Made by a program: the position numbers and the translations under genes. Shown here piece after piece: positions 2 to 14,394 of a stretch of DNA of 14,463 nucleotides. Each line of letters starts with the position of its first letter. Within the stretch, counting starts at the first letter, position 1. The notes beneath the pieces were generated by a model that did no database searches, was not told the DNA's origin, and was given only the letters and a program-made list of their open reading frames with translations. The stretch is taken from positions 29,961 to 44,423 of the forward strand of contig CAZOYD010000025.1 in NCBI GenBank assembly GCA_964583985.1, given 5' to 3'. Source of the stretch: an uncultured archaeon. Lineage in GTDB: Archaea; Asgardarchaeota; Lokiarchaeia; Sigyniarchaeales; SOKP01.

Positions 2-895
2 TAAGTAATTAGTATAGCAATGGTAAGGCATAACACCACGAGAATATAATTGGAAAATTCCACAGCAGCATGAACAACAATTACAGATGGCTTCCTCATC
101 CAATTCAGTATTTAAATGAACGTGAAATGCTTTGTGGACCAGACCTTCATCAGATGCTTTCTTTATTATTCTTTTAGCTTCTTCTTTTGATATAGGATTT
201 GCAAACTTGTGTTCTATTGCAAATTGTGCACTCTTTCCTAAGAGGAAACAATTTTCCCTTTCATCCGTGATTTTACACGGTTGATCCAACAAATCTCGAG
301 AATGTCGACAGTAACAATGAGCAAGAGCGATGTCATCATACTTGTCAACTATTTTTGATACTTCTTCGTGTGGTATAACCATATCAATTGGGACATCTCC
401 AATTTCTTCTTCGACGGGAACTATTCTTACTACTGGAGGAAAATGTTCAAATTGCCTAACGAAATTATCGTAATTGTTTTGCGTTCCTTCTCTCATTTTA
501 ACAAAAATGTTTTCAAAAAGATGAGCTATTTTTTTATGTTTCTCATCAGTTTCACCTTTAAGATTAGTATATTCAAACATTCCTGGAAATGGTCCTAAGA
601 GCCTATAAACCATCATACCGGTTCTTCTGCTTGGAAGTCCAACAATAACACCATTATCCATCAGAATTTTCAGCATGTTGTCTAATTGAGTGCTATTTAG
701 AGTTGTATTTGACTTGATTTGATCACTGTTTAAAGAGGGTTTTTTAAACACTGACGAAATGAATTGAGCTTGTTCCTCCGTTATTATGTTCTGTATGAGT
801 TCGATTAATTCTTCACTAATTGGCATTGGCATTTGACCTGCTTTTACGATTGTCCTAGCCACTTTATACCATATTTTATCTTGGGGTTCTGTCAT
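2..895 (-). CDS. Cys-rich iron-sulfur protein (CNCCxCCC family, usually annotated '4Fe-4S binding/dicluster domain protein'); 3' end lies beyond the left edge
   Basis: Manual translation from ATG at 895 gives 298 open codons to the window edge: MTEPQDKIWYKVARTIVKAGQMPMPISEELIELIQ...IALAHCYCRHSRDLLDQPCKITDERENCFLLGKSAQFAIEHKFANPISKEEAKRIIKKASDEGLVHKAFHVHLNTELDEEAICNCCSCCCGIFQLYSRGVMPYHCYTNYL. The motifs CxCR, PC, NC, GLVH and ICNCCxCCC are typical of this anaerobe family, whose ferredoxin domain normally follows just downstream. GGTGTGA lies 5 nt before the ATG. Absent from the ORF track because there is no stop in the window. Confidence 0.88.
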   Translation of the reverse strand, partial: MTEPQDKIWYKVARTIVKAGQMPMPISEELIELIQNIITEEQAQFISSVFKKPSLNSDQIKSNTTLNSTQLDNMLKILMDNGVIVGLPSRRTGMMVYRLLGPFPGMFEYTNLKGETDEKHKKIAHLFENIFVKMREGTQNNYDNFVRQFEHFPPVVRIVPVEEEIGDVPIDMVIPHEEVSKIVDKYDDIALAHCYCRHSRDLLDQPCKITDERENCFLLGKSAQFAIEHKFANPISKEEAKRIIKKASDEGLVHKAFHVHLNTELDEEAICNCCSCCCGIFQLYSRGVMPYHCYTNYL

Positions 896-900
896 ATATT

Positions 901-907
901 TCACACC
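901..907 (-). promoter_or_regulatory. Shine-Dalgarno-like site (GGTGTGA) of the Fe-S protein gene
   Basis: The minus strand reads gatGGTGTGAaatatATG, resembling the archaeal GGTGA-type RBS at a normal spacing. Confidence 0.6.
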
Positions 908-1005: not shown

Positions 1006-1422
1006 TCAAAGAGGTTCTCTTACCAAATAATATATTTTTTCCGAATTGCACTTTACACAATTACCTTTTTTACCTATAGAAGCAGTTACATCTTCCCATT
1101 CATGATTACAATTCAAACAACCAAAACCTATGAAACTTTTTTTATAATCAACGTTACCGCCATGAATCGTAATTTTTTTCCCCTCTATCAAAGCTTGCGT
1201 CATTTTTTTATGTGCATTTTCTAGAATCCGTGAAAAAGTTGGTTGTGAGACGCCCATTGTTGAAGCTGAAGTTTGTTGAGACAGATCAAGATAATGTTTT
1301 AATCTCATTGCTTCAAATTCTGCAAGACTTAATTTAATCATTGATAGATCATCCTTAAAAGGATGGAAATAAAAGTTATTTGGGGGGTGTTTAATAAATC
1401 TCGTTTGCGTGCTACGTCCCAT
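1006..1422 (-). CDS. DUF134 (UPF0251) domain protein: predicted HTH DNA-binding protein with a C-terminal zinc ribbon
   Basis: MGR..R.I...P...YF.P N-terminus, then LSLAEFEAMRLKHYLDLSQQTSASTMGVSQPTFSRILENAHKKMTQALIEGKKITIHGG, which matches the DUF134 pattern (EAxRL...xxQ..AA..MGVSxxTFxRxL..A..K...ALxxGKxxxIxGG). C-terminal CLNC...HEW...CVKCNS gives two CxxC pairs. Confidence 0.92.
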   Translation of the reverse strand: MGRSTQTRFIKHPPNNFYFHPFKDDLSMIKLSLAEFEAMRLKHYLDLSQQTSASTMGVSQPTFSRILENAHKKMTQALIEGKKITIHGGNVDYKKSFIGFGCLNCNHEWEDVTASIGKKGNCVKCNSEKIYYLVREPL

Positions 1423-1554: not shown

Positions 1555-2730
1555 ATGAAAATAGAATACGCGGAAAGAATTCAGACACTCCCTCGATATA
1601 TTTTTGCTGAAATTGAACAGTTGAAAATGAATAAAAAGAAACAAGGCGTCGATCTCATCCCTTTAGGGATTGGAGATCCTGATTTAGAGACACCAAAGGT
1701 GATTTTGGATGAGCTCATAAAACAAGTAAAACTGCAACCGAATCAGAATTATCCCTCAAGCATGGGTGAAGCAGATTTTAGAGAAGCGATCCAGAAATGG
1801 TATGCCGTAAGATTTAATTTGGATTACAATTCCGAAACCGAGATCACGGGATTAATAGGAGGTAAAGAAGGGATTGCCAATATAGCTCGAGCATTTATCA
1901 ATCCCAAAGATATCGTTTTGGTTCCAACTCCCGGATATCCCGTATATGAAAACGGAGCGACAAAATTATGCGATGGAATCCCCTATTTGATGCCATTGAA
2001 TGAAGAAAATAATTTTTTGCCTGATTTAGATAGTATCGATACTAAAATTCTCAGAAAGGCTAAAATGATGTATTTAAATTACCCTAACAATCCAACAGGC
2101 GCAATTGCACCAAATTCTTTTCTGAAAAAAGCGACAGATTATGCGGAAGATTATGATTTTTTTATCGTGTATGACAATCCTTATTCAGAATTTACTTTCG
2201 ATGAATATATTGCCCCTTCATTGCTTGAAATCAATAGAGATCACGTGGAAATTAATAGTGCATCTAAAATGTTTAATTGTACAGGATTTCGTTGTGCTTG
2301 GGCTGTTGGAAATGAAAAAATTATAAATGGGATACGAAAAGTGAAGTCTCAAATAGATTCAGGATGCCCGATTTTCATTCAAAAAGCAATTATTAGAGGA
2401 TTGAATGATTACACTTCCAATAAAAAACCAGAAATTGTCAAAAGAACTGTTCAAGTTTATCAAGAACGGAGAAATGTTTTAGTTGATGGGTTGAATCAAA
2501 TTGGATGGAAGACTGAAAAGCCCAAAGCAACATTTTATGTCTGGACACGTATTCCGAAAGAAGGCATGAATAGCATGGAATTTGTCAAGGAACTTATTAA
2601 TGTAGGTGTTATTCTAACCCCTGGTACTGGTTTTGGTCAATATGGTGAAGGATACGTTCGATTTGCTTTAACACAACCAATAGAACGGATAAAAGAAGCT
2701 ATCGAAAGAATTAATACTCTATTAAATTAG
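1555..2730 (+). CDS. dapL: PLP-dependent class I/II aminotransferase, most similar in pattern to DapL2-type LL-diaminopimelate aminotransferase
   Basis: N-terminus AERIQTLPRYIFAEI...GVDLIPLGIGDPDLETP, then LIGGKEGIA, PGYPVY, YLNYPNNPTGA, YDNPYSE, PLP lysine in SASKMFNCTGFR (codon 2266-2268), IDSG, KATFYVW and TPGTGFGQYGEGYVRFAL. The fold assignment is near certain; DAP specificity is inferred. ATG 1555, preceded by GTGAG, is preferred over GTG 1546. Confidence 0.68.
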   Translation: MKIEYAERIQTLPRYIFAEIEQLKMNKKKQGVDLIPLGIGDPDLETPKVILDELIKQVKLQPNQNYPSSMGEADFREAIQKWYAVRFNLDYNSETEITGLIGGKEGIANIARAFINPKDIVLVPTPGYPVYENGATKLCDGIPYLMPLNEENNFLPDLDSIDTKILRKAKMMYLNYPNNPTGAIAPNSFLKKATDYAEDYDFFIVYDNPYSEFTFDEYIAPSLLEINRDHVEINSASKMFNCTGFRCAWAVGNEKIINGIRKVKSQIDSGCPIFIQKAIIRGLNDYTSNKKPEIVKRTVQVYQERRNVLVDGLNQIGWKTEKPKATFYVWTRIPKEGMNSMEFVKELINVGVILTPGTGFGQYGEGYVRFALTQPIERIKEAIERINTLLN

Positions 2731-2756
2731 AAAATAAGAAATTAAAAAGAATTGTG

Positions 2757-3170
2757 TCATTTTGAATATTTTTGATATTTTTTCCTTAAATATGCCATTT
2801 TAGTCAGATCTTCTGATTCTATAGCTCCAGGATATTCATAATAATTATCCAAGACCATCATTACTGGGCTATTTTCAGAACTCCAATCTTTATAATAATC
2901 TAATATAACTTTTGGATCAAATCCTTCTGCATATTCCTTTTGCGTTTTTTTCACCTCCACTCTTTTTTAAATCTCACGCAGATAATTAATCCAGTTCTTT
3001 AGTCCTATTTTATATTCTGTGGGAAGTAATAATGTCAAGAGAACAAATCCTACAAGGTTATAAAAAGGAGTAAAAGAAAAGGATTCGTTCTCTCTTCATA
3101 ATACTACGGGAATAATGGCTCTCTTATAGCCAATACGAGTGCATGTAGTATTATGATGTGAAATAAACAT
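2757..3170 (-). pseudogene. Probable decayed gene of unknown function (138 codons with two internal stops); the track's 67-aa ORF is its 3' part
   Basis: One frame from ATG 3170 reads MFISHHNTTCTRIGYKRAIIPVVL*RENESFSFTPFYNLVGFVLLTLLLPTEYKIGLKNWINYLREI*KRVEVKKTQKEYAEGFDPKVILDYYKDW...KYQKYSK*, with TGA at 3098-3096 and TAA at 2969-2967. TTTATAAA (3200-3207) lies about 30 nt upstream, and the minus strand is T-rich after the stop (2731-2750). Confidence 0.45.
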
Positions 3171-3325
3171 TATGTTCAAAAAGATCAAGGGAGAATTACT
3201 TTATAAATTTTATGGGAGTTTTTTCCCATTCATCAAGTTTTCCTACCCTCATAATTTCAAAATAAGGTGTAAATTCTAATTTTTACCCTAAATCCTTGAT
3301 ATCTTCTTTTTAAGCTAAAAAATCT

Positions 3326-3348
3326 AATGTGATATGTTGCATAACATT
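3326..3348. promoter_or_regulatory. Nested inverted repeat upstream of the giant ORF; candidate operator
   Basis: AATGTGAT-N7-ATAACATT (7/8 match, 3326-3348) overlaps a perfect ATGTT-N4-AACAT (3334-3347), about 55-75 nt before ATG 3401. An SD-like GAGGG is at 3389-3393. Confidence 0.35.
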
Positions 3349-3400
3349 TTTGTATGAGTTTTGTCTTATAACACAAGAATAAAAAAATGAGGGTTTTAAA

Positions 3401-6400
3401 ATGAAATCTAAAGGAACAGAAAATTCTCAAGAGAGAATTGTAAAAGCAACGGAATCTTTATGGAAATTTTTGTGGTTTTTGGTTTATATCATTTTCATTC
3501 CGACTTTAGTTGCAGTGTTGTTTTTCTTTCTTTTTGGGTTTGTTATAACTTCTATTTTCGGAGTTTCTGATTTTGTCATACCCCTCGCTCTCTCTGCTAT
3601 TATGTTTCTTGTGTCAATTCTCATATTTTACAGACCCTTTGACAAATATCGGAATAAATCAATATTTCAAAACAAAATAAACAATCCAAGAGTCAGGATC
3701 CATATCTTATTCTTGATAACCTTAATTTCGCTTATATACACTCCGGTGTTTTTGTTATTTGTTCCACAATATTATCAAGATCAATTAAATTTACTACCAT
3801 TGATCACCTTCGTTTTAACATATAATAGCATATATCTTTATTTTTTTTCACAACCAATAGACTTTTTCAGCATTTCTGATTCGAGCTTTAAACATTTTAA
3901 TAGGTTTAAAGATACGATAAAACAACCATATAATCTTATAATCCTTATGAACTACGCAGTTCATATAGCTTTTTTATCCTTCACTTTTGAAATGCAACTA
4001 TTGAATATTAACATATCTTGGTCATTTGCTTTTATTACTAACCTTTTATTTTATATAATAGCGTTAAGAACGACTAAACCATACGTTAAAAAGATTGAGT
4101 ACGCAATATCTAATCAAGGTGGTTTTCTTGAGGATTTAGTCCTCTATAAACAAGCTTTCGTAAAATCCATTGTCAGAATGGATTTTCTCATATTAATTCA
4201 AATTCCTTTTGGAATTCTATCAGTTTTCTTCAGGTCGATTGGACCTAATTCATTAATTAATGCGTTCTTCATAACAATTCTTCTTCTAATCTTTAATTTT
4301 AAAATTGATATTTATCTGAAATCTTATTATTTCAATCAGTTAAATCGATTAAACCCAGAAAAGTATCCTTCTCGTGAGCTTGGAGTAAAGTGGAATTTTT
4401 TTTTAACTGTTTTAATTATGATATTGATTCCTTCTTATATCTTCTACTATTCTTTCAGTATCCCAGAAGTACTATACTTTAATTTTCTAGCTTTAGTTAT
4501 TATTTTTACAATTACAAGAGTAGAAGAAAAATATAAATATCTTCCAAAAAGTTATGCTAGGCATCTGCATCTAATCAACACCATTTTCCTTTTAGCAATT
4601 ATATCCTTTCAAATCCTTTCAGTTCTAGATCCTTTCATCCAATTTGCTATATTTTTAATTTCTTTGTATTTTGGTTTAGAAATCTTTACAAAATATGAAT
4701 ATTATAGCAAAAAGAATGTTCTAATTGTCCAAAACATCCTTGCGATTTCAGGTTTTTATTGTATCGCGTATATATTTTTCAAAGAGATAGCCTTTGGAAC
4801 AACACCTATAGATAGTATTAACAATTTCATAGTACATTACATCCTTCCAGGGTTAATTGGCTCCCTATTTTCTCTATATTTACTTTATTTCCGGCATTTT
4901 TACAATAAATCGTGGAAAACTTTAAGAACAGGTTTCATAATCAATTGTTTAGCCATAATTGGACTTGCTTTTTATTTATTCAATCTAAATTTTGATTTTA
5001 ACACCATGGTTGCTTATGTAATTGGTTTTTCCATTTTATATATCATTTTTTCAGGGTTTAATTACATCATACAACTTTTCACTAAGGAAAATTTAGTAAA
5101 TAATATATATAATACAATTTGGTTGTTAGATTTCAGTATCTTCTCTGTACTGTTAGTTAATACGTTGAAAAGTGGAGTTACGCTTTTTACAATAATTCCC
5201 GATTTCTTTATCCTATCTATCTTGATTCTCTTCACAGTTTGGTTTGGTAAAAAAGTCGGTAGATTGAGTGAAGATACATATTTCAAACTTTTTAATTTGA
5301 ATGGATTTTTGCTAATCATTGAAATTTTTATATTATCATCACAATATCTCATTGAAAAAGTCTTTTTAGATGAAATCGAATTTAAGATTTTAGCCTATTT
5401 TTTATCTACATGCATTATATCATTAATTATAAATATAGCGGCCCCTTCAAAATCACCTTTAATTAAGAAAGTAAAGGGTTTTCTTAATATTTTCACTGTC
5501 ATGTTCGGATGGTTTGTCTTAGAAATGTTTTATTTCTTGACAAATTACCAAAATCTCTATTACCTTTATGGTTTAATCATTTTCTCTTCAATTGTGACCA
5601 CACTTCCAATAGGGTTCTTAGTAATTGCAAAACTTATTGATAAAAAGAAATTTGTTGATTATCTATATCTCGTGTTAAATGTCATTTGTTTGACTTCGTT
5701 CTCTTTTATTATTCACTTCATATTGTTAACCAATATTGTTGATCTTTTTTTTGGAATTAATTTCATACTTTTATCATTAATCATTTGTTATATTGGAATA
5801 GGTAAGTTAGGAGTTAAATTCGGATATGTTTCTGAAGAATTTTATATAAAATTTGTAAAGTTAATGTATTATCCAATTGGTATACTACTGTTCCTCGTGT
5901 TCTTTAGCTTTACTTTATCAACCACTGGTGATAATTTTCTCTCCTTCCTAATTGCCTCGTTAATTTTATCAGCAATGACTAATTTTGCGAGTTTACGCTT
6001 TAAAACGATTAATTTAATTAACTTGCGCATCACATCATTTACGCTTTTTTTTGCTGCGATTTACGTGTCTATATTTTTATTTCAATCATTTATAATTATC
6101 CCATTTTCAACATTATCCCTTTCTGAATGGTATGTTAATCTTTATGCATCTGTAATGTCTATTCAAGTCATTTTTTACATCCCTTTCGGATATTTAGCGG
6201 CGAAAAAAGTCATAAAAAGGGAAGTATACTATAGATATAGCTATTATTCAATGTTTAGCTTGATGCTTTTATTGTTTCTCTTCATAGTATCATTCTTTTA
6301 TAATTTGTTTTATTCTTCCATGGTATTTTACATTCTTGCCTTTATTGCAGATCTGATTTATATAACCATAACTCTCTATAATCATATCAAGAGAGGGTTA

Positions 6401-9400
6401 GCAAAAAAATACCTTCCCATAATTCACCTAACACAGAAATCTGCGATTATCCTTTATACTACGCTTTTTACTGAATTTTACTCATTTCTATTAACCATAA
6501 TACTTCTGTTTTTTCCACAACCATTGCAGTTATGGCAGATGTGGTTTTCGAGTTATTTCGCATTCATTTTAATAACATTAGTGATAATGGCTTTAGCAAG
6601 TAAGTTGATTATTTTTTCTACTGATTTCAGTCGAAGAATAAACCTGATATCTTTAATCTTCACTTCAGTTACTTTTTCATACTTTATCTTAAATCTTGTA
6701 AATAGTATTTTCAATAACTTGTTTTTGCAATGGGACATTACAATAATAAGCTTTCTTACCTTTTTACTACTTCCTTTATATCATTCAATTAAAAGAAAGA
6801 TGTTTCAGCGATTTCTGAGTAAAAATTATGTCTACATCAACGGAATTTTAATTTCACTTTTTATAATAGCTCTACCAGCATTGTTCGCTTATGAATTTTC
6901 TCTTTTTGAAAACTATTTACCCTATATCATCATATCTTCAATTGTATTAGTATACTGTTTTTTAAAGTATTTAGAGTACACATTTGATGAATTAAAAGTT
7001 GGTCAAGGTCGAATTATTGCTTTAAAGACTATCCAGTTGATTAGTTGGAATTTATTATCAATTATCGCATCTAATACTATCTTTATCACATTTGCTCCAA
7101 TGTTTATTGATCAGTTGTTCTATATGGTGTTAATGAGCTCATTTATTACATTTTTCATAATAAATCTGAACAGCCTTACGATAATAGAAGATATAAAGCA
7201 AAGAGTCTTTGAAAACGAGGATCTTAAAATTGATTATTACAAAGTTTATAAAATCTATGAATTTTATAAAAACATTAGCTTTTTCGCATTCATTTTCTCA
7301 ATATCAGGATTAATTTCTGCCTTCTTATCGCCTATTTCATATATAATTGAAGATCTGATACCATTACTATTTTTATCACCAGAAATAATTCAGTTCGAAG
7401 TGTTCTTTTTACTTACACTTTTAATTCTTTTAATCACGCAGAAAATCGAGATAGAATATCAAAAAATTAGAACTTGGATTATTTTAATTTCTTGGGTTAT
7501 AATAAAGGGCACGATATGCGTGTATATGTATTTTTATTTTATAGATACTCCAATCATAGCTTGGAGTATATCAATATTGATATTCTCGGTATTAAGCCCT
7601 ATTACGATGAATTTTATTAAGAATATAAGGTTAATTTTTGGCACCACAAAAAAGATTATCAAAAGCACCCTTGTAAGTTCATTTTACATTTCCTTGATCA
7701 CGCTTTATCTTCTATATTTCTGGAATCTTAGGATTAGTCCTTTTTTCACAGAAAATCTACTATTATTTTGGTTTTTACTAATAAGTAATATCATTATTTA
7801 CTTTGATTACGTTTTTATAAGATTGAAAGACGTTTTTGAAGCAAATTTTGAATTTAATTTATTAAAACTCTATTTCAAATCTGCACTAGTCTTATTTCTA
7901 TTTATTTTCATTGATTTTTATTTAAACCTGATATTATGGTTTATTGCTGCGATTGTTTTGCTAAATCGCAGGAATCATAGTATTATTATTAGGTGGGTAA
8001 TTTACATGTTGTTTACACTTTCATTATACATCTATATAACAATAGATTTTTCAATTTTGCTTACCTTAGGGGGGAGATATCTTTATATTATATTAACCGG
8101 GTCCCTTTTATCCGTGTTATTCATTTCAATTTTAACTAATTACGAGAAAGTTAATGACATAGAAAAGTTTAGTGTTTATTTAATTCTGTCGTTCCTATCA
8201 TTTATAGCATGTTCGCTGATCCCTGGATTTTTCGTTATTCCTGGTTTACTCTATAACGGCACTTTTTCATTATTGATTTTCTTGGTTTTAACTGGTAATC
8301 ATTATTATCAAAAGAGAGATAATAGATACAAATTATTTATCAGACCTTGTGTTGTTTTGGCAGTATTTGATTTTACTAGCTTTTTATTTTATGGAATGCT
8401 CTTCAATAACACTCCTTATAGCCCCGTATATCAACCGATTCTGAGTTTTACTTCCACTTTTAGTTTGACAGGATTTGCGTTTGTATCTCTTTATAATCAA
8501 TCTCCTCAGAGGTTTAGAAAATTATCATTCTTTATCGTTTTACCCCTCTTGATTTTAAGTGTTCCCATTTTCGTATATTATTTCACTTACGCAACGTTTC
8601 CCTTACTTAGAACTTCAGTATTACCTTTAACTATTTCTTTAAACATAGGAATTTTCTTTTTCTTTATAGCAATTGGACTATATCAATGGAAATTTTCAAG
8701 AGCGATTTGGAAAACGGGATTTTGGGCCTGGATTTTATTTCCAATAATAAATTATGCTGTAATTGATCAATCTTTGGCAAATTTGAGTTTACGAACTTTA
8801 GAGCTTTTTGGTTTTATCAATATTCCTGCCTCAACCCTATTAGCGATTACAATCTGTATTATTTTATCCTTTCCGTTTTGGTATACTTGGATAAGAGCTC
8901 ATTTTACTACGGTCTTGTTTGCTGCTTGGATATTAAATCTCGGTTTACTCTATTGGTTTAGCCAATCCTTATTCTTTGGAAGTGAATTATTGATAAATTC
9001 TTCATTTCTAATTTTTTCATTCATATTGCTCATGCCATTAGTTTATAAACTTAAAATTTGGAGAGTATTGATGGCGTTCTGGATCCTTTTTACAATAATT
9101 ACTATTTCCTTTATTGATTTCACCTTTATATCAATGGGGTTCGATTCTACTACTGTTTTATCTATTGATATCAGTGTAATAGGTTTATCCCTTATCTTTT
9201 TATCATATTTCCCCAATATGAGGAATAAGAGGAATCTTTCATTAATCATAGCTTATTTTACATTAATAACAGGGATTTCCATAATGGTATATCAAATTAT
9301 TCTCATCGCTACTGTTTTTAGAGGTGATCCAATAGGAGCTCTATATTTAACAGTGATTATAATCTCTGCTTCATCATTTTCGTCTAGAATACTAAAGATT

Positions 9401-12400
9401 AACAAAATTCTTATGAATTTTTTAATTTCGTGGGCGTTAGTTATTTCATTTGCTCTTATGTCTTTCCATATTTATAGTAAATTATTTCCATATGATATTG
9501 GAGCATTGTATATAGCATTAAGTGTTGGTGGTTTAACTTTTTTTATTTTTAATCGCTATAAAATGCTTTGGGGTTCTTATGAAAACTTTATGCCCGTTTC
9601 TTCCATAATTGCATTTATTGCAATTTCATTAGGAACTTCGCTTTCAATTTCATCCATATTGTTGAATTATTTAATATTAGAAAATCCTTGGTTCCTAATC
9701 ATATCCGTATTCCTATTCACAAATATTATATTTCTTTCATTTAAACTAAAAATTTACCAATTTATCTTAGCTTATTTACTTCCGATCCCTATAACCTCAT
9801 TAATTCTCCACTTATTAGTGCTTTTTAATCCATTGATAAATGCTCTGATTCTATCCATACTAGGTATCTTCATTTTTAGTTTCCTCAATCAATTCATGAA
9901 AGTAAATATAACTTTTAAAGCAATTTTACGTTTAATTTTATACCTTGACAGCTTTGCCCTATCACTTCTACTATCAAATATCCCAGATCCGTCATTAAAT
10001 CTCTTTATTTCATTATTAATTTTATTTGTATTAACATTCTTTGAAAATCTCCTAGTGAAAAAACGTAAGTACTGGTTTAATGTTCTCTTAAACCTCGTTA
10101 GTTATGTATCTTCAACTGTGTTCTTATATTGGTATTTGAATGGTATATTTTTAGAACAGTATGATTACATGATATGGTTAAATACGTTTATTTTTATATT
10201 ACTTCAAAAGTATACAGTTTATATCGCCTATACAATTTTAAAATCCTTGAATAAATATGATCTGGAAAAACTTATGCGATATAAGTCAATTTTGAATTTC
10301 ATGTTATCAAATTTTCTATATATCCTTATAAGTCTTTATGGTTCTTTAAGCCTTGGCTCTATAATTCCTGCAATTTTCTCTCTAGTTGAAATCGCATCAA
10401 TCTTCTTGGGTTTAACTTTATTCTGTTTATTCTATTTTATTCTTATTAGCGTTTTCAATAAAAAACTAAAAGGTAAAATTAGGAGTTTTACAAGAATGGG
10501 CTTATTTTTGGCTTTTCAAGGTAATTTATTCGGATTATGGGCTTTTAGTCTTGGTTTATCTGATCTATTTTATTTAATGTTCATATTGATTATCGAAACG
10601 ATATTATTATATTACACTTTTAGCTTGATCTCTCTATCAATAAAGAAGGAGGGTAAAGAAAGGGTATTAAACTACGCTCCACCTTTAACTTACCTTTTAT
10701 ATGTTGAAATCTCAATATTGAGTTTTGCTTGGTTTAATATTTTAGCATTATATCAATTATATTCAAGTATCTTGACCATCTTGGTCTTTTTTATCTTGAC
10801 TGTTATTGATTTGGGAGTTGTTAAAAAGGTCAATATTAAGTTGATGAAACTCAGTCATTTTTTTAGTTATACTACTTTATCTATGCTTATTTTTATTCAA
10901 GCCTTTGACTTTCTATTTGGCCAGATTAACACCATTATCTTCAACTTTATCATAATCTTTTTCCTTGCCATGCAGTTTTATACGATACGATCTCTATTTT
11001 CATTCTTAAGTCATTATCAATGGTTCAATAATATTAAAGCGTTAAGAATTAAGCAAATGATCAATAACATCTTGATAAATTCGATTTTTGTATTATTAAG
11101 TTTATTAGGCACACAGTTAGTCACAGATTATATTTTTCAATTTAATAATCTATATTTGTATTTATTATCGTTTTCTTTCTTTATTTTCTTTTTAAATGGA
11201 ACCGTCAACAGAACTATTGAAAAATCTTTAAGAGTCAAATTCTTACTTGTCCCCTCCTTTATTGCCTTGCAGGTATTTTCACTTGCTTTTATGGTTAATA
11301 TAATGATTTTGAGTGATATTAACCTCTACTTCTTTTGGTTGAGTTTAATTACTCTCATCGAAACCGTTTTAAGTGTTTATCCTCTAAATATTGCTAGAAA
11401 ATATATGATGAATGAAGCAAGAAAATTATTAATTTCAAGATTGTTTAAAGTGGTTGACTTTTGTTTGTATCTTGAAATTACTATGTTAAGTTTTGGATTA
11501 TTTTATTTCAATTTAAATCAAGATCCATTCCAGAGCTTATTATATTCCCAATTGGTATTGTTTGGACTAAGCATTTTAGAAATAGTTACTTTTAAGAGAT
11601 TAAAGGAAAAATTTGGATACGTTATACATCTTCTAAGTTACCTCGTTATTTCAGCTTCATTAATCTATATAATATACTTATTATCACTATCAGAAATTTT
11701 TTACCTAATAGTTATTTTGATGCAGTTCTATTCTAATTACGTTTATTACAGAATGAAGCGTGATATAACCCCCACCAAGGCTGAAAATTACCAATATGGG
11801 GCTGTAAGGAGACAAAGAGTAATTGGAAATGCTTTCTATATTGTGTTAGTCTTTTTAGTTTCTCGATTTCTCTTAATTTTTAGTGGTTTCGATATTTTAA
11901 CTTCATTTTTCTTGATTAGTTTACTACTCCATTTAATCTCCCTACTTGACAGGGCGATATTAATATTCCTTGGTCGCTTATCAATGCCACTAATTGTCAT
12001 TTCACTAATATTTATCAATATTTTTTCAATTCCATCGCTATTGACATTTATTTTTAGTACAGGACTTACTTATACTTTGATTCCCTTAGTGATCCTCATC
12101 GTAGAATTAGAGTTATTCTATTTAACTAAACTTATCAGTAAATGGCAAACCTTTAGAAATCTGATTATATCCATTTTATATTTCAATATTTCATCGTGGC
12201 CTGTTTATTTTGTGAGCATTGAAGTTACACTTCAAACAATATTGATAAATTTTAACTTGATACTATTGTCTTTATTTTTATTATTCATAATGGTAAAAAT
12301 TGACAAGAAAATTAATGCTTTAAGCATAAAAATGTCGAAAGGCATCATTTCTACATCATTAGTTATTCTTGGGTTTGGAATCCCAATAGATATTTTTATT

Positions 12401-13234
12401 CTATTACAATCATACCTCCAAGCGCAATTTCCGCTAAATGTTGCATTTTCAGCTTTTATTGGCACGATTGAGTTGGGGATCATCAAAAAACCCTATAAAA
12501 AAAAGAGAACCATCTCATTCTTCTATACGCTTTCACTTCTCATCGAATTGTTAGTTATCACTGATCAAATAAATATTCCTGCATTAGGATACAGTATATT
12601 AGTGCTTGGGACGCTTATTTATCTCTATACTTTCTTGTTAGAAGAATTGAGGGAATTTTTCAGCCATATCGTTGATTATATCTCAAAATTCTTTAAAGCT
12701 ATAATTTCCTTCATTAACTCGATCTTGAATTCAATTTACAATTTCTTAAGGAGGAATTACGTCACACTTAAAATACTTTTAGCTGCTACCATCGGTAGTC
12801 TATTGGGATATGTGTCGTCTATAGTTCCTATATTTCTCCCCGTTCCTTTGAGCGTAATTAATCCTCCTCATGCGCCTTTATTTGGTTTAGCCGTATTCGG
12901 TTTAATTGTCGGACTTTTTCCTGGAACGAAATCTGAAGATCCAGATATAATCTTTAGAACACGAATGATTCGATTTAGTACAGCTTGGTTCGGAATTACA
13001 ATTGTGATTGTTACACTTATATTACCTATAATTAGCGATGATATCATTCTACAAGCATTCTTAGTACTCTCATCTTTCGTGATCTTAGGCTTAATCCTTG
13101 CGATTTATGTGTGGAGGATTGAGAAAAAGCAAAAAATTTCAATTAAATGGCGATTTTATATTACCATAACATTAATAGTAATGCTAGTGATTTGGGGAAT
13201 TTTGATATTTATGTTATATCTCGGTCCTTCATAA
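3401..13234 (+). CDS. Giant polytopic membrane protein (3277 aa, about 100 TM helices by eye, internal repeats), function unknown
   Basis: A 9834-nt open frame in AT-rich DNA cannot be chance. SD-like GAGGG precedes the ATG and a T-rich tract follows the stop. Hydrophobic 17-24 aa segments run end to end, separated alternately by short neutral or acidic loops and K/R-rich loops. No Walker motif, signal-peptide-plus-ectodomain or catalytic motif recognised. Confidence 0.95.
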   Translation: MKSKGTENSQERIVKATESLWKFLWFLVYIIFIPTLVAVLFFFLFGFVITSIFGVSDFVIPLALSAIMFLVSILIFYRPFDKYRNKSIFQNKINNPRVRIHILFLITLISLIYTPVFLLFVPQYYQDQLNLLPLITFVLTYNSIYLYFFSQPIDFFSISDSSFKHFNRFKDTIKQPYNLIILMNYAVHIAFLSFTFEMQLLNINISWSFAFITNLLFYIIALRTTKPYVKKIEYAISNQGGFLEDLVLYKQAFVKSIVRMDFLILIQIPFGILSVFFRSIGPNSLINAFFITILLLIFNFKIDIYLKSYYFNQLNRLNPEKYPSRELGVKWNFFLTVLIMILIPSYIFYYSFSIPEVLYFNFLALVIIFTITRVEEKYKYLPKSYARHLHLINTIFLLAIISFQILSVLDPFIQFAIFLISLYFGLEIFTKYEYYSKKNVLIVQNILAISGFYCIAYIFFKEIAFGTTPIDSINNFIVHYILPGLIGSLFSLYLLYFRHFYNKSWKTLRTGFIINCLAIIGLAFYLFNLNFDFNTMVAYVIGFSILYIIFSGFNYIIQLFTKENLVNNIYNTIWLLDFSIFSVLLVNTLKSGVTLFTIIPDFFILSILILFTVWFGKKVGRLSEDTYFKLFNLNGFLLIIEIFILSSQYLIEKVFLDEIEFKILAYFLSTCIISLIINIAAPSKSPLIKKVKGFLNIFTVMFGWFVLEMFYFLTNYQNLYYLYGLIIFSSIVTTLPIGFLVIAKLIDKKKFVDYLYLVLNVICLTSFSFIIHFILLTNIVDLFFGINFILLSLIICYIGIGKLGVKFGYVSEEFYIKFVKLMYYPIGILLFLVFFSFTLSTTGDNFLSFLIASLILSAMTNFASLRFKTINLINLRITSFTLFFAAIYVSIFLFQSFIIIPFSTLSLSEWYVNLYASVMSIQVIFYIPFGYLAAKKVIKREVYYRYSYYSMFSLMLLLFLFIVSFFYNLFYSSMVFYILAFIADLIYITITLYNHIKRGLAKKYLPIIHLTQKSAIILYTTLFTEFYSFLLTIILLFFPQPLQLWQMWFSSYFAFILITLVIMALASKLIIFSTDFSRRINLISLIFTSVTFSYFILNLVNSIFNNLFLQWDITIISFLTFLLLPLYHSIKRKMFQRFLSKNYVYINGILISLFIIALPALFAYEFSLFENYLPYIIISSIVLVYCFLKYLEYTFDELKVGQGRIIALKTIQLISWNLLSIIASNTIFITFAPMFIDQLFYMVLMSSFITFFIINLNSLTIIEDIKQRVFENEDLKIDYYKVYKIYEFYKNISFFAFIFSISGLISAFLSPISYIIEDLIPLLFLSPEIIQFEVFFLLTLLILLITQKIEIEYQKIRTWIILISWVIIKGTICVYMYFYFIDTPIIAWSISILIFSVLSPITMNFIKNIRLIFGTTKKIIKSTLVSSFYISLITLYLLYFWNLRISPFFTENLLLFWFLLISNIIIYFDYVFIRLKDVFEANFEFNLLKLYFKSALVLFLFIFIDFYLNLILWFIAAIVLLNRRNHSIIIRWVIYMLFTLSLYIYITIDFSILLTLGGRYLYIILTGSLLSVLFISILTNYEKVNDIEKFSVYLILSFLSFIACSLIPGFFVIPGLLYNGTFSLLIFLVLTGNHYYQKRDNRYKLFIRPCVVLAVFDFTSFLFYGMLFNNTPYSPVYQPILSFTSTFSLTGFAFVSLYNQSPQRFRKLSFFIVLPLLILSVPIFVYYFTYATFPLLRTSVLPLTISLNIGIFFFFIAIGLYQWKFSRAIWKTGFWAWILFPIINYAVIDQSLANLSLRTLELFGFINIPASTLLAITICIILSFPFWYTWIRAHFTTVLFAAWILNLGLLYWFSQSLFFGSELLINSSFLIFSFILLMPLVYKLKIWRVLMAFWILFTIITISFIDFTFISMGFDSTTVLSIDISVIGLSLIFLSYFPNMRNKRNLSLIIAYFTLITGISIMVYQIILIATVFRGDPIGALYLTVIIISASSFSSRILKINKILMNFLISWALVISFALMSFHIYSKLFPYDIGALYIALSVGGLTFFIFNRYKMLWGSYENFMPVSSIIAFIAISLGTSLSISSILLNYLILENPWFLIISVFLFTNIIFLSFKLKIYQFILAYLLPIPITSLILHLLVLFNPLINALILSILGIFIFSFLNQFMKVNITFKAILRLILYLDSFALSLLLSNIPDPSLNLFISLLILFVLTFFENLLVKKRKYWFNVLLNLVSYVSSTVFLYWYLNGIFLEQYDYMIWLNTFIFILLQKYTVYIAYTILKSLNKYDLEKLMRYKSILNFMLSNFLYILISLYGSLSLGSIIPAIFSLVEIASIFLGLTLFCLFYFILISVFNKKLKGKIRSFTRMGLFLAFQGNLFGLWAFSLGLSDLFYLMFILIIETILLYYTFSLISLSIKKEGKERVLNYAPPLTYLLYVEISILSFAWFNILALYQLYSSILTILVFFILTVIDLGVVKKVNIKLMKLSHFFSYTTLSMLIFIQAFDFLFGQINTIIFNFIIIFFLAMQFYTIRSLFSFLSHYQWFNNIKALRIKQMINNILINSIFVLLSLLGTQLVTDYIFQFNNLYLYLLSFSFFIFFLNGTVNRTIEKSLRVKFLLVPSFIALQVFSLAFMVNIMILSDINLYFFWLSLITLIETVLSVYPLNIARKYMMNEARKLLISRLFKVVDFCLYLEITMLSFGLFYFNLNQDPFQSLLYSQLVLFGLSILEIVTFKRLKEKFGYVIHLLSYLVISASLIYIIYLLSLSEIFYLIVILMQFYSNYVYYRMKRDITPTKAENYQYGAVRRQRVIGNAFYIVLVFLVSRFLLIFSGFDILTSFFLISLLLHLISLLDRAILIFLGRLSMPLIVISLIFINIFSIPSLLTFIFSTGLTYTLIPLVILIVELELFYLTKLISKWQTFRNLIISILYFNISSWPVYFVSIEVTLQTILINFNLILLSLFLLFIMVKIDKKINALSIKMSKGIISTSLVILGFGIPIDIFILLQSYLQAQFPLNVAFSAFIGTIELGIIKKPYKKKRTISFFYTLSLLIELLVITDQINIPALGYSILVLGTLIYLYTFLLEELREFFSHIVDYISKFFKAIISFINSILNSIYNFLRRNYVTLKILLAATIGSLLGYVSSIVPIFLPVPLSVINPPHAPLFGLAVFGLIVGLFPGTKSEDPDIIFRTRMIRFSTAWFGITIVIVTLILPIISDDIILQAFLVLSSFVILGLILAIYVWRIEKKQKISIKWRFYITITLIVMLVIWGILIFMLYLGPS
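5048..6970 (+). repeat. Degenerate protein-level tandem repeat, about 190 aa (6 TM), at least 3 copies
   Basis: FGKKVGRLSEDTYFKL (S623) vs LGVKFGYVSEEFYIKF (S811). LPIGFLVIAKLIDKKKFVDY (P736) vs IPFGYLAAKKVIKREVYYRY (P928) vs LPLYHSIKRKMFQRFLSKNY (P1125). Spacings are 188, 192 and 197 aa. Confidence 0.7.
9920..12175 (+). repeat. Degenerate protein-level tandem repeat, about 254 aa (8 TM), 3 copies plus a possible partial fourth
   Basis: LYLD/LYVE/LYLE at aa 2180/2433/2689 (then LYFN at 2926); LVSY/FFSY/LLSY; LQKY/MQFY/MQFY at 2268/2524/2774; IIET/LIET/IVEL with E at 2399/2654/2902. Spacings among the three full copies are 248-256 aa. Confidence 0.85.
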
Positions 13235-13845: not shown

Positions 13846-14394
13846 ATGATAAAAATGGAAACCAAAGAAGAAAAACTCAACGTCAGAGATTGGATCACTC
13901 TGAGTACTGTAATGATAGGCGCAGTATTAACCATCCTTGCGTTAATTTGGCAAAATGTCCCTAGTAATGGAATTGTAACTGTAACTTTCCTCCTAATGTT
14001 AGGGTTCATTTTCTTTGTAAATTCCGTATCAACTAACTCTAAGGCTAAATTTGAATCAAAGTTAAAGAATGTGGATAGAAAGAAAGTGAATCAATTCGTA
14101 GCGTTTGCAGAATATTCTTTTGGGCTCGGATTTACATTCGTAATAATCGCATTTGCATTCCTTGGCTACAAATACTTGTTAGACTTTGTTGGACGTAATT
14201 TAATGACATTTCTACTGCCAATCGTATTCTTGTTGACAGCTTGGATAATTATAGTTATCTATAATATTATAAATTTTTCAGGAAAAGCATTCAAAAGTTT
14301 TAGAAGTTTAAAGCGAAGTATCTGGATGCTCTTAGAGTTAATAGCTTTAGGGTTTATTGTATTAGATTTCTTTGGAATTATTATAATTCCTTAA
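13846..14394 (+). CDS. Hypothetical integral membrane protein, about 5 TM helices
   Basis: 182-aa ORF (alternative start ATG 13855) with hydrophobic segments WITLSTVMIGAVLTILALIW, IVTVTFLLMLGFIFFVNSV, YSFGLGFTFVIIAFAFLGY, LMTFLLPIVFLLTAWIIIVIYNII and IWMLLELIALGFIVLDFFGIII. Promoter-like element upstream and oligo-T downstream. Confidence 0.88.
   Translation: MIKMETKEEKLNVRDWITLSTVMIGAVLTILALIWQNVPSNGIVTVTFLLMLGFIFFVNSVSTNSKAKFESKLKNVDRKKVNQFVAFAEYSFGLGFTFVIIAFAFLGYKYLLDFVGRNLMTFLLPIVFLLTAWIIIVIYNIINFSGKAFKSFRSLKRSIWMLLELIALGFIVLDFFGIIIIP

Follow-up and report, generated by a model that had tools for sequence, protein, structure and literature searches.

The stretch of DNA analysed here (14,463 nt, hereafter the window) comes from an uncultured archaeon of the Lokiarchaeia and carries, on its plus strand at positions 3401-13234, an intact open reading frame (ORF) for a protein of 3,277 amino acids (aa) plus stop, which we call the giant. 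We conclude, with a probability of about 0.9, that this is a genuine, single-copy and order-restricted Lokiarchaeial gene, and that its product is one polypeptide with about 100 transmembrane (TM) helices in about 50 hairpins, with a cytoplasmic N-terminus, three conserved modules and two arms. As far as sequence and model comparisons reach, the giant matches no known family or fold, and its family is undescribed. No characterised protein is known to combine about 100 membrane helices in a single chain and to leave next to nothing outside the bilayer; how a chain of this kind enters the membrane, folds and serves the cell is a question that follows from it. The Lokiarchaeial order concerned includes cultured Asgard archaea with elaborate membrane protrusions.

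The giant ORF is a genuine gene

The 3,277-aa frame, first proposed in an earlier note made from the letters of the window, was confirmed by direct reading and by colinear ORFs of 3,277, 3,277 and 3,270 aa in three independent assemblies (NCBI, JGI); the agreement among these assemblies speaks against the chimeric assembly that the note had named as a possible flaw. The ATG start codon is supported by the many homologues that align from residue 1. The ratio of nonsynonymous to synonymous substitution rates (dN/dS, or ω) between the giant gene and a 69%-identical orthologue was 0.07-0.16 in each 400-codon block. Against the 96%-identical allele at a related locus, L025, for which dS is unsaturated, the ratio was 0.35, and across ten pairs of giant genes it ranged from 0.07 to 0.35. 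The gene is single-copy in its own genome (3.8 Mb, scored 100% complete) and apparently monocistronic.

We also weighed whether the frame could be an artefact: a frame left open by chance in AT-rich DNA, an assembly error, or a false fusion of several genes. A GC content of 27% favours codons for F, I, L, K and N, and composition alone gives about 68 pseudo-TM segments (see below). However, stop codons are themselves AT-rich, and 3,277 open codons in a region of 27-31% GC are therefore far beyond chance. Moreover, ω stays at about 0.1-0.35 along the whole length, full-length colinear frames recur in independent NCBI and JGI assemblies, and matches were found in 57 of 300 sampled genomes of the phylum, the complete ones lying in open frames of about 2,500-4,300 aa without internal stops. 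An artefact is thus hardly credible.

Number and topology of the membrane helices

The giant is rich in leucine (16.6%), isoleucine (15.1%) and phenylalanine (11.7%), which together make up 43% of its residues, and its mean Kyte-Doolittle hydropathy is 1.01. The TM numbers given here are counts of hydrophobic segments by several hydropathy rules together with the helices of AlphaFold2 (AF2) models, rather than the output of a dedicated TM predictor. A strict greedy rule (19-mers with a Kyte-Doolittle mean of at least 1.5) gave 92 segments, the addition of a second pass at 0.95 or above raised the count to 102 (two-pass rule), and peak finding gave 99-106. When the strict rule was applied to 200 composition-matched shuffles, 68 ± 3.4 segments were obtained, with a maximum of 79; composition therefore explains about two thirds of the segment count and residue order the rest.

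An AF2 model of aa 1110-2160, built with 76 homologues, was nearly all helix, with a predicted local distance difference test score (pLDDT) of 80 and a predicted template-modelling score (pTM) of 0.48. Within its 1,051 aa, about 34 hydrophobic helices were 15 aa or longer, one per 31 aa. Extended to the full length, this density would give about 106 helices, with the exact count and its parity only approximate.

Lysine and arginine (K/R) recur with a period of 61-62 aa (autocorrelation r = 0.40). Loops alternate almost without a break between K/R-rich (median 17 aa) and K/R-free (median 6 aa), and the N-terminus is K/R-rich. This alternation amounts to about 53 hairpins, and the positive-inside rule places the N-terminus in the cytoplasm. 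The outer loops comprise 297 residues in all, the longest non-hydrophobic stretch is 40 aa, and 59% of the residues lie in TM segments. The topology sketched by eye in the earlier note is thereby upheld: its estimate of about 100 segments (103 by hand) compares with 92-105 counted and about 106 extrapolated from the core model, its hairpins with alternating K/R-rich and neutral loops and an inner N-terminus agree with the K/R period and the loop alternation, and its ceiling of about 45 aa for any loop is respected.

Modular anatomy of the giant

Module boundaries were drawn from a BLAST coverage map over the family (95 homologues). Three conserved modules were delimited, an N module (aa 1 to about 700), a core (aa 1110-2160; 30-37% identity) and a C module (about 2600-3277), with variable stretches at aa ~700-1110 and ~2150-2600 (Table 1).

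Table 1. Features of the giant gene and of its upstream neighbours, in window coordinates
Feature	Position	Strand	Remarks
Ferredoxin-like gene, 5'-truncated	2-904	-	Fer4 in L005 and L007 homologues; here weak TFIIE_alpha and CtsR_C rows
DUF134 gene	1006-1422	-	E 8e-23; part of conserved upstream block
Shine-Dalgarno-like GAGGG	3389-3393	+	Putative, read from the sequence; 7 nt before ATG
Giant ORF	3401-13234	+	~100 TM helices; dN/dS 0.12 over whole length vs 69%-identical orthologue
N module (aa 1-~700)	3401-5500	+	Conserved; first ~316 aa absent in members of 2.5-2.7 thousand aa
Variable N arm (aa ~701-1109)	5501-6727	+	Only 12-21 of 95 homologues align; weak ~190-aa repeats
Conserved core (aa 1110-2160)	6728-9880	+	~34 helices; alignment A1, 76 sequences, 48% mean column identity
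Hub (aa 1590-2065)	8168-9595	+	Most conserved part; alignment A2, 95 sequences, 50% column identity
C-arm 8-TM unit, copy 1 (aa 2196-2450)	9986-10750	+	Iterated hidden Markov model, i-E 8e-51
C-arm 8-TM unit, copy 2 (aa 2451-2706)	10751-11518	+	i-E 7e-50
C-arm 8-TM unit, copy 3 (aa 2708-2944)	11522-12232	+	i-E 1e-48
C-cap (aa 2945-3277)	12233-13231	+	Conserved; alignment A3, 64 sequences, 46% column identity

The repeats of the N arm are weak (pairwise E 0.007-0.009; ungapped lag-192 score 62 against a shuffle maximum of 52), and an iterated hidden Markov model (HMM) for the ~190-aa repeat did not grow. The core opens with a 4-TM unit of ~125 aa, tandem in many relatives, where upstream matches to A1 positions 2-125 are found; in this protein the unit (aa 1111-1234) is single, and repeat copies occur only in the relatives. 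No internal duplication was found by hhalign between 200-aa blocks of the core, and an ungapped lag-446 signal there was unconfirmed.

Within the core lies the hub, whose alignment contains ten invariant positions: four W, four P, one N and one F. At a conservation of at least 90%, Y, G and S join them, and the sole charged residues are R1706 and K1832. Modelled alone, the hub reached a pLDDT of 89.4 and a pTM of 0.69; several of its helices are kinked or broken, and a single short beta-hairpin lies near aa 1799-1809. Conserved charges in mid-helix are few, namely K1369 (96%; just upstream of the hub) and D1657 (76%), accompanied by several Asn. A two-copy hub complex prediction scored 0.00, which counts neither for nor against self-association.

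The C arm has a period of 256 aa by self-BLAST. Conserved in its 8-TM unit are an MQFYT motif and, as single residues, a Pro, a Glu within the membrane (82%) and a Tyr (99%); the unit profile is detected 0-6 times per family member, mostly 2-3 times. In the C-cap, E-E-L-K-E-F opens an amphipathic stretch; the module also has a block of helices rich in Gly and Pro and, on the cytoplasmic side, a near-invariant I-S-I-K-W-R-F-Y. Its invariant positions (A3 numbering) are D24, P87, E137, F241, E297, S303 and R307, and in 66 sequences it ends within 5 residues of the C-terminus. The arms differ in length from species to species as helix blocks are gained or lost.

A family confined to one archaeal order

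A word-indexed search returned 95 proteins of 1,870-3,754 aa, none with a Pfam domain; homologues and fragments together number about 130. Every named homologue comes from metagenome-assembled genomes of Promethearchaeota, Lokiarchaeia or 'Hodarchaeota', in keeping with an Asgard host, the case that the earlier note had singled out as the most interesting. The core profile was also run against all 1.84 billion cluster representatives, giving 67 matches (64 at E <= 1e-10), all of them giants or contig-end fragments; no family of small proteins was found, and separate small genes of known transporter families, which would have spoken against the view of the earlier note, did not appear. For reference, the window ORF scores 1069 bits against the core A1 profile. 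A search for free-standing relatives of the 8-TM unit (115-468 aa) gave only a fragment of another giant. Open frames in the family span 1.9 to about 4.3 thousand aa.

In the 300-genome sample of the phylum, matches occurred in 50 of the 67 genomes of the window's family and in 6 of the 7 of a sister family in the same order; none of the 226 genomes of 28 other families had one. On this distribution, the giant family appears to be confined to one archaeal order.

Comparison with known families brought no convincing match. Pfam gave nothing for the whole protein (E <= 0.1) and only chance rows for nine overlapping fragments (E <= 1), and the hub profile had no match among PDB sequences at E <= 10. 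Foldseek searches of the PDB with the core and hub models gave best E-values of 0.04-0.16 at template-modelling scores (TM-scores) of 0.1-0.2, all rows at this level being HEAT/TPR-type alpha-solenoids and a designed toroid; the TM-score usually taken for a shared fold is 0.5. VIA-align against 48,161 chains reached Z 9.3 and 9.1 at best, over partial ranges and below the tool's stated noise level for helical proteins; overall, the fold searches with both models yielded helix hairpins or bundles of a generic kind. An ESM-Atlas shape search with the hub placed a DUF2339 cluster on top (TM-score 0.34 over 232 residues), followed by DUF2157 (0.24/0.32), and ESM-Atlas feature searches with the hub and with two C-arm units gave no usable match. 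The PF10101 (DUF2339) model had no match at E <= 0.01 anywhere in the genome, the giant included, although control genomes do match. For glycosyltransferases and polymerases of the GT-C type, which would carry a conserved acidic motif in the first outer loop, there was no Pfam match, and nearly all hub invariants are uncharged. Literature searches returned no description of the giant family. These results support the earlier note in so far as it took the protein for a possibly undescribed one: the fragment modelling and Foldseek search that it proposed yielded an almost wholly helical core with no convincing fold match, and no characterised family emerged from the Pfam, PDB-profile or fold searches.

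Evolutionary rate, constraint and a probable allele exchange

In genomes whose aminotransferase, encoded beside the giant, is about 70% identical to that of the window, the hub is only 35-45% and the C-cap 32-38% identical, and hub-tree branches exceed their counterparts in the aminotransferase tree roughly 3-5-fold in length. The giant gene thus evolves several-fold faster than its syntenic neighbours. At one locus in one genus, length classes of about 2,540, 2,720, 2,830, 3,010 and 3,280 aa occur.

Constraint is unevenly distributed over the chain. In ten pairs, ω was 0.07-0.26 for cytoplasmic loops, 0.11-0.32 for helices and 0.19-1.33 for outer loops, and the outer loops were significantly enriched in replacements in 6 of the 10. 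Identity to the 69% orthologue was 73% in inner loops, 71% in helices and 51% in outer loops. By these comparisons, the cytoplasmic loops are the most constrained part and the outer loops the least. The value of 1.33 was reached only in the closest pair and rests on 24 versus 5 changes (Fisher p = 0.0025 against the rest); positive selection is therefore not established.

Between the window and the 96%-identical L025, the C arm (aa 2100-3000, positions ~9700-12400) differs by 23, 19 and 32 residues per 300 aa, and the first two thirds of the protein by 6-10 per 300 aa, a 3-4-fold higher density of differences in the C arm. Possible reasons are a relaxed constraint there or gene conversion among the 8-TM repeats.

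The position of the window among its relatives depends on the gene considered. Judged by its aminotransferase, DUF134 and downstream genes, the window falls with loci L005, L006 and L007 (85-93% identity), whereas its giant is only 43-45% identical to theirs; it is 69-71% identical to the giants of L002 and L008, though the flanks of these are 57-74% identical. The aminotransferase tree gives (window, (L005, L007)) and the hub tree (window, L002), each with support 100/99. In the approximately unbiased (AU) test, each data set rejected the grouping of the other (p = 6e-5 and 2e-4); the clade groups were named after the identities had been seen, which weakens the tests. Because the two splits are incompatible whatever the root, an exchange of alleles at the giant locus is indicated, and the simplest reading is that recombination in the conserved flanks put a divergent allele in place of the whole gene. 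Apart from the window, hub and aminotransferase trees agree, and a single exchange event is seen. No sharp recombination breakpoint was located inside the 5' end of the gene, whose first 120 aa share only 55-67% identity with class B alleles.

Possible functions

Our tentative preference is for a structural role, in which the giant would be a membrane ribbon lying in the plane of the bilayer, a transmembrane alpha-solenoid. This is favoured because no catalytic or transporter signature is present, the invariants are mostly aromatic, Pro, Gly and Asn residues, the chain is built of repeats, and the fold-search rows are solenoid-like. The conserved polar residues of the repeat units (Q/Y/T, Glu, Tyr) would zip neighbouring helices together, the W/P/N/G-rich hub would act as a fixed architectural joint, and the constrained basic cytoplasmic loops would be the working surface that binds anionic lipid or a cytoplasmic partner. 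Such a ribbon would act on the membrane itself, by stiffening, bending or partitioning it, and would neither catalyse a reaction nor pump a solute. Also counting for it are the selection on the gene; the row of hairpins; the modular, stretchable arms, with 0-6 copies of the 8-TM unit and a 4-TM unit tandem in relatives; the cytoplasmic face as the most constrained part; and the lack of a conserved operon partner. The nearest Foldseek rows (HEAT, TPR and the designed toroid, at the TM-scores given above) would suit a solenoid rather than a globular bundle.

A bolder version, which we consider doubtful, would make the family a new class of transmembrane alpha-solenoid of about 50 hairpins, forming an in-plane ribbon of tens of nanometres or a closed corral in the Lokiarchaeial membrane, with arms tuned by blocks of 4, 6 or 8 helices and basic cytoplasmic loops that dock to the cell interior. 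If true, the archaea closest to eukaryotes would use a ribbon or corral of this kind to shape their membrane, to stiffen it or to partition it.

Several points weigh against the structural ribbon. Composition alone yields about 68 apparent TM segments, and part of the pattern is therefore cheap to produce. The low constraint on the outer loops may merely reflect short linkers. K1369, D1657, the Glu of the 8-TM units and the broken hub helices would equally suit a path for ions or a substrate. The solenoid shape draws on weak fold-search rows and on a core model with a pTM of only 0.48, and we infer the scaffold role itself from sequence and models.

The alternative to which those polar residues point is an ion- or solute-conducting machine, either a Piezo-like channel, in which the arms sense tension and the hub or C-cap forms the pore, or an ion-binding chain like that of complex I or Mrp; we consider it possible but unlikely. 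Polar and charged residues lie deep in the helices (K1369, D1657 and several Asn), each 8-TM unit has one conserved Glu in addition to Q/Y/T, the hub combines kinked or broken helices with a beta-hairpin, and the C-cap contributes a Gly-rich helix block and conserved cytoplasmic motifs. The combination of repeat arms with conserved modules recalls what is generally known of the Piezo layout, and weak VIA-align rows to small complex I/Mrp subunits were obtained (Z 7.5-8.7, ~80 aa). However, there is no Pfam match to Piezo, Proton_antipo or any channel family, the fold matches lie under the stated noise level for helical bundles, the variable regions stand between the conserved modules and not distally as in Piezo blades, no energy-input partner gene is found nearby, and invariant charges are few.

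Two further readings seem improbable to us. One is lipid handling, in which the giant would scramble, repair or organise lipids in the manner of the bacterial DUF2339/Arc3A proteins, which have many helices and prevent lysophospholipid build-up. The DUF2339 and DUF2157 rows of the hub shape search and the Trp, Tyr and Asn of the hub, which could line a lipid-facing groove, would fit this; against it, the top TM-score of 0.34 is under the usual 0.5, PF10101 has no match in the genome, Pfam scans of the protein and its fragments were empty, and the DUF2339 cluster listed is bacterial, unlike the giant family with its single archaeal order. The other is an envelope component exposed to viruses or syntrophic partners, whose diversity would be driven by contact, as in phage receptors and swapped surface antigens. 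The long hub branches, the hub identity of 35-45% where that of the aminotransferase is about 70%, the five length classes at one syntenic locus, the incompatible splits of hub (window, L002) and flank (window, L005, L007), and the fast outer loops all lean towards such exposure. Yet these loops are tiny and offer little to recognise, ω exceeds 1 in only 1 of 10 pairs, on few changes, a single exchange was seen among trees that otherwise agree, and the groups of the AU test were chosen after the fact. The structural ribbon remains our tentative choice. A fixed hub, stretchable arms and a fast evolution that includes allele exchange make the system approachable by comparative structure prediction, cryo-electron tomography and genetics.

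The locus and its neighbouring genes

Across the genus, the giant gene is preceded by two ferredoxin-like genes, a DUF134 gene and a class I/II aminotransferase gene, and followed by a membrane protein gene of about 180 codons and a GyrI-like gene. In distant relatives the neighbours differ, being uronate isomerase genes in one and a GH4 gene with an ABC transporter in another. No partner gene, be it for an ATPase, a binding protein or anything else, is conserved beside the giant across the compared loci, in agreement with the earlier remark that the gene stands without such neighbours.

The downstream neighbour in the window (13846-14394, plus strand) encodes a membrane protein of 182 aa with about 4-5 hydrophobic segments and a sub-threshold Peptidase_M50B-like match. 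It is conserved downstream of the giant genus-wide and is 93% identical in L005. In L022, this protein is 86% identical to that of the window and the aminotransferase only 71%, possibly a second exchange at the locus.

A small ORF (2776-2960, minus strand) lies between the aminotransferase gene and a conserved non-coding element; genes of 64-67 aa without a Pfam match occupy the same place in L002, L005, L006, L007 and L025. The element itself (3037-3155), situated between the aminotransferase and giant genes, could be an unannotated small RNA, on either strand, or a palindromic operator. It contains two long stem-loops at 3038-3050/3081-3095 and 3097-3107/3145-3155 with an inner GGCT/AGCC hairpin, and compensatory changes were seen in 4 of 25 predicted pairs. 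It is 92-93% identical in close relatives and 79% in L002, is detectable across the genus, and in L004 (76% over 80 nt) stands beside the aminotransferase rather than the giant. Rfam and ARAGORN gave no match on the upstream spacer. Further down, at 3200-3235 and about 195 nt before the ATG of the giant gene, the near-invariant TTTATAAA, which resembles an archaeal TATA box, precedes an ATGGGA...TCCCAT hairpin. Nearer the start are a second conserved block, ATGTTGCATAACATTTTTGTATG (~3337-3359), and a TATA-like CTTATAAC; any of these might drive the giant gene.

Comparison with known systems

Piezo1 and Piezo2, mechanosensitive channels that are homotrimers around a central pore, have 38 TM helices per chain, with nine 4-TM repeat units per blade. 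The giant resembles them in having very many helices per chain, repeated small bundles as long arms and conserved non-repeat modules. It differs in the number of helices, about 2.7 times that of Piezo, and in the lack of large domains on the extracellular or cytoplasmic side; its variable parts are internal, whereas those of Piezo are distal. The Piezo Pfam domains had no match in the giant, and no Piezo chain was among the listed Foldseek and VIA-align rows for the models of the core (aa 1110-2160) and the hub (aa 1590-2065).

Arc3A of Pseudomonas aeruginosa, which is large and polytopic and has a role in the homeostasis of membrane lipids (PMC8926400), and DUF2339 (PF10101) in general share with the giant a large and almost purely polytopic build, together with the top, weak, shape row for the hub. 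In contrast to them, the giant has no PF10101 match, and Arc3A is bacterial and several-fold shorter.

With the membrane arm of complex I and with Mrp, the giant shares a long in-plane row of helices, intramembrane Lys and Glu, and broken helices. The VIA-align rows concern 3-TM subunits of the NuoK/ND4L/MrpF type and are within noise. Complex I and Mrp are multi-subunit assemblies of 14-TM antiporter-like folds with two broken helices, unlike the single chain of the giant; Proton_antipo_M had no Pfam match, the large antiporter-like subunits had no fold match, and no redox or other coupling partner gene was found near the giant.

The closest relatives are the other, uncharacterised members of the family (for example 'hypothetical protein' entries from Promethearchaeota metagenome-assembled genomes), which match the hub, C-cap and 8-TM unit profiles with E-values down to 0 and follow the same three-module plan; within the genus they occupy the same syntenic locus. 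Among these, the window allele belongs to the longest class of its genus (~3,280 aa) and has three C-arm units.

The giant proteins of Omnitrophota (bioRxiv 10.1101/2023.11.21.568195; 10.64898/2026.06.07.730766) are likewise prokaryotic with very many predicted TM helices, and one of 147,155 aa is predicted to have 147 (doi 10.64898/2026.06.07.730766). The earlier note had ranked Piezo among the highest TM counts; as a raw count this is surpassed by the Omnitrophota prediction. The Omnitrophota giants, however, consist mostly of soluble domains, with about one helix per 1,000 aa, whereas here 59% of the residues are in TM segments, for which no parallel was found, and loops are at most 40 aa. 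What is unusual in the giant is thus not the raw number of helices but their density, about one per 31 aa.

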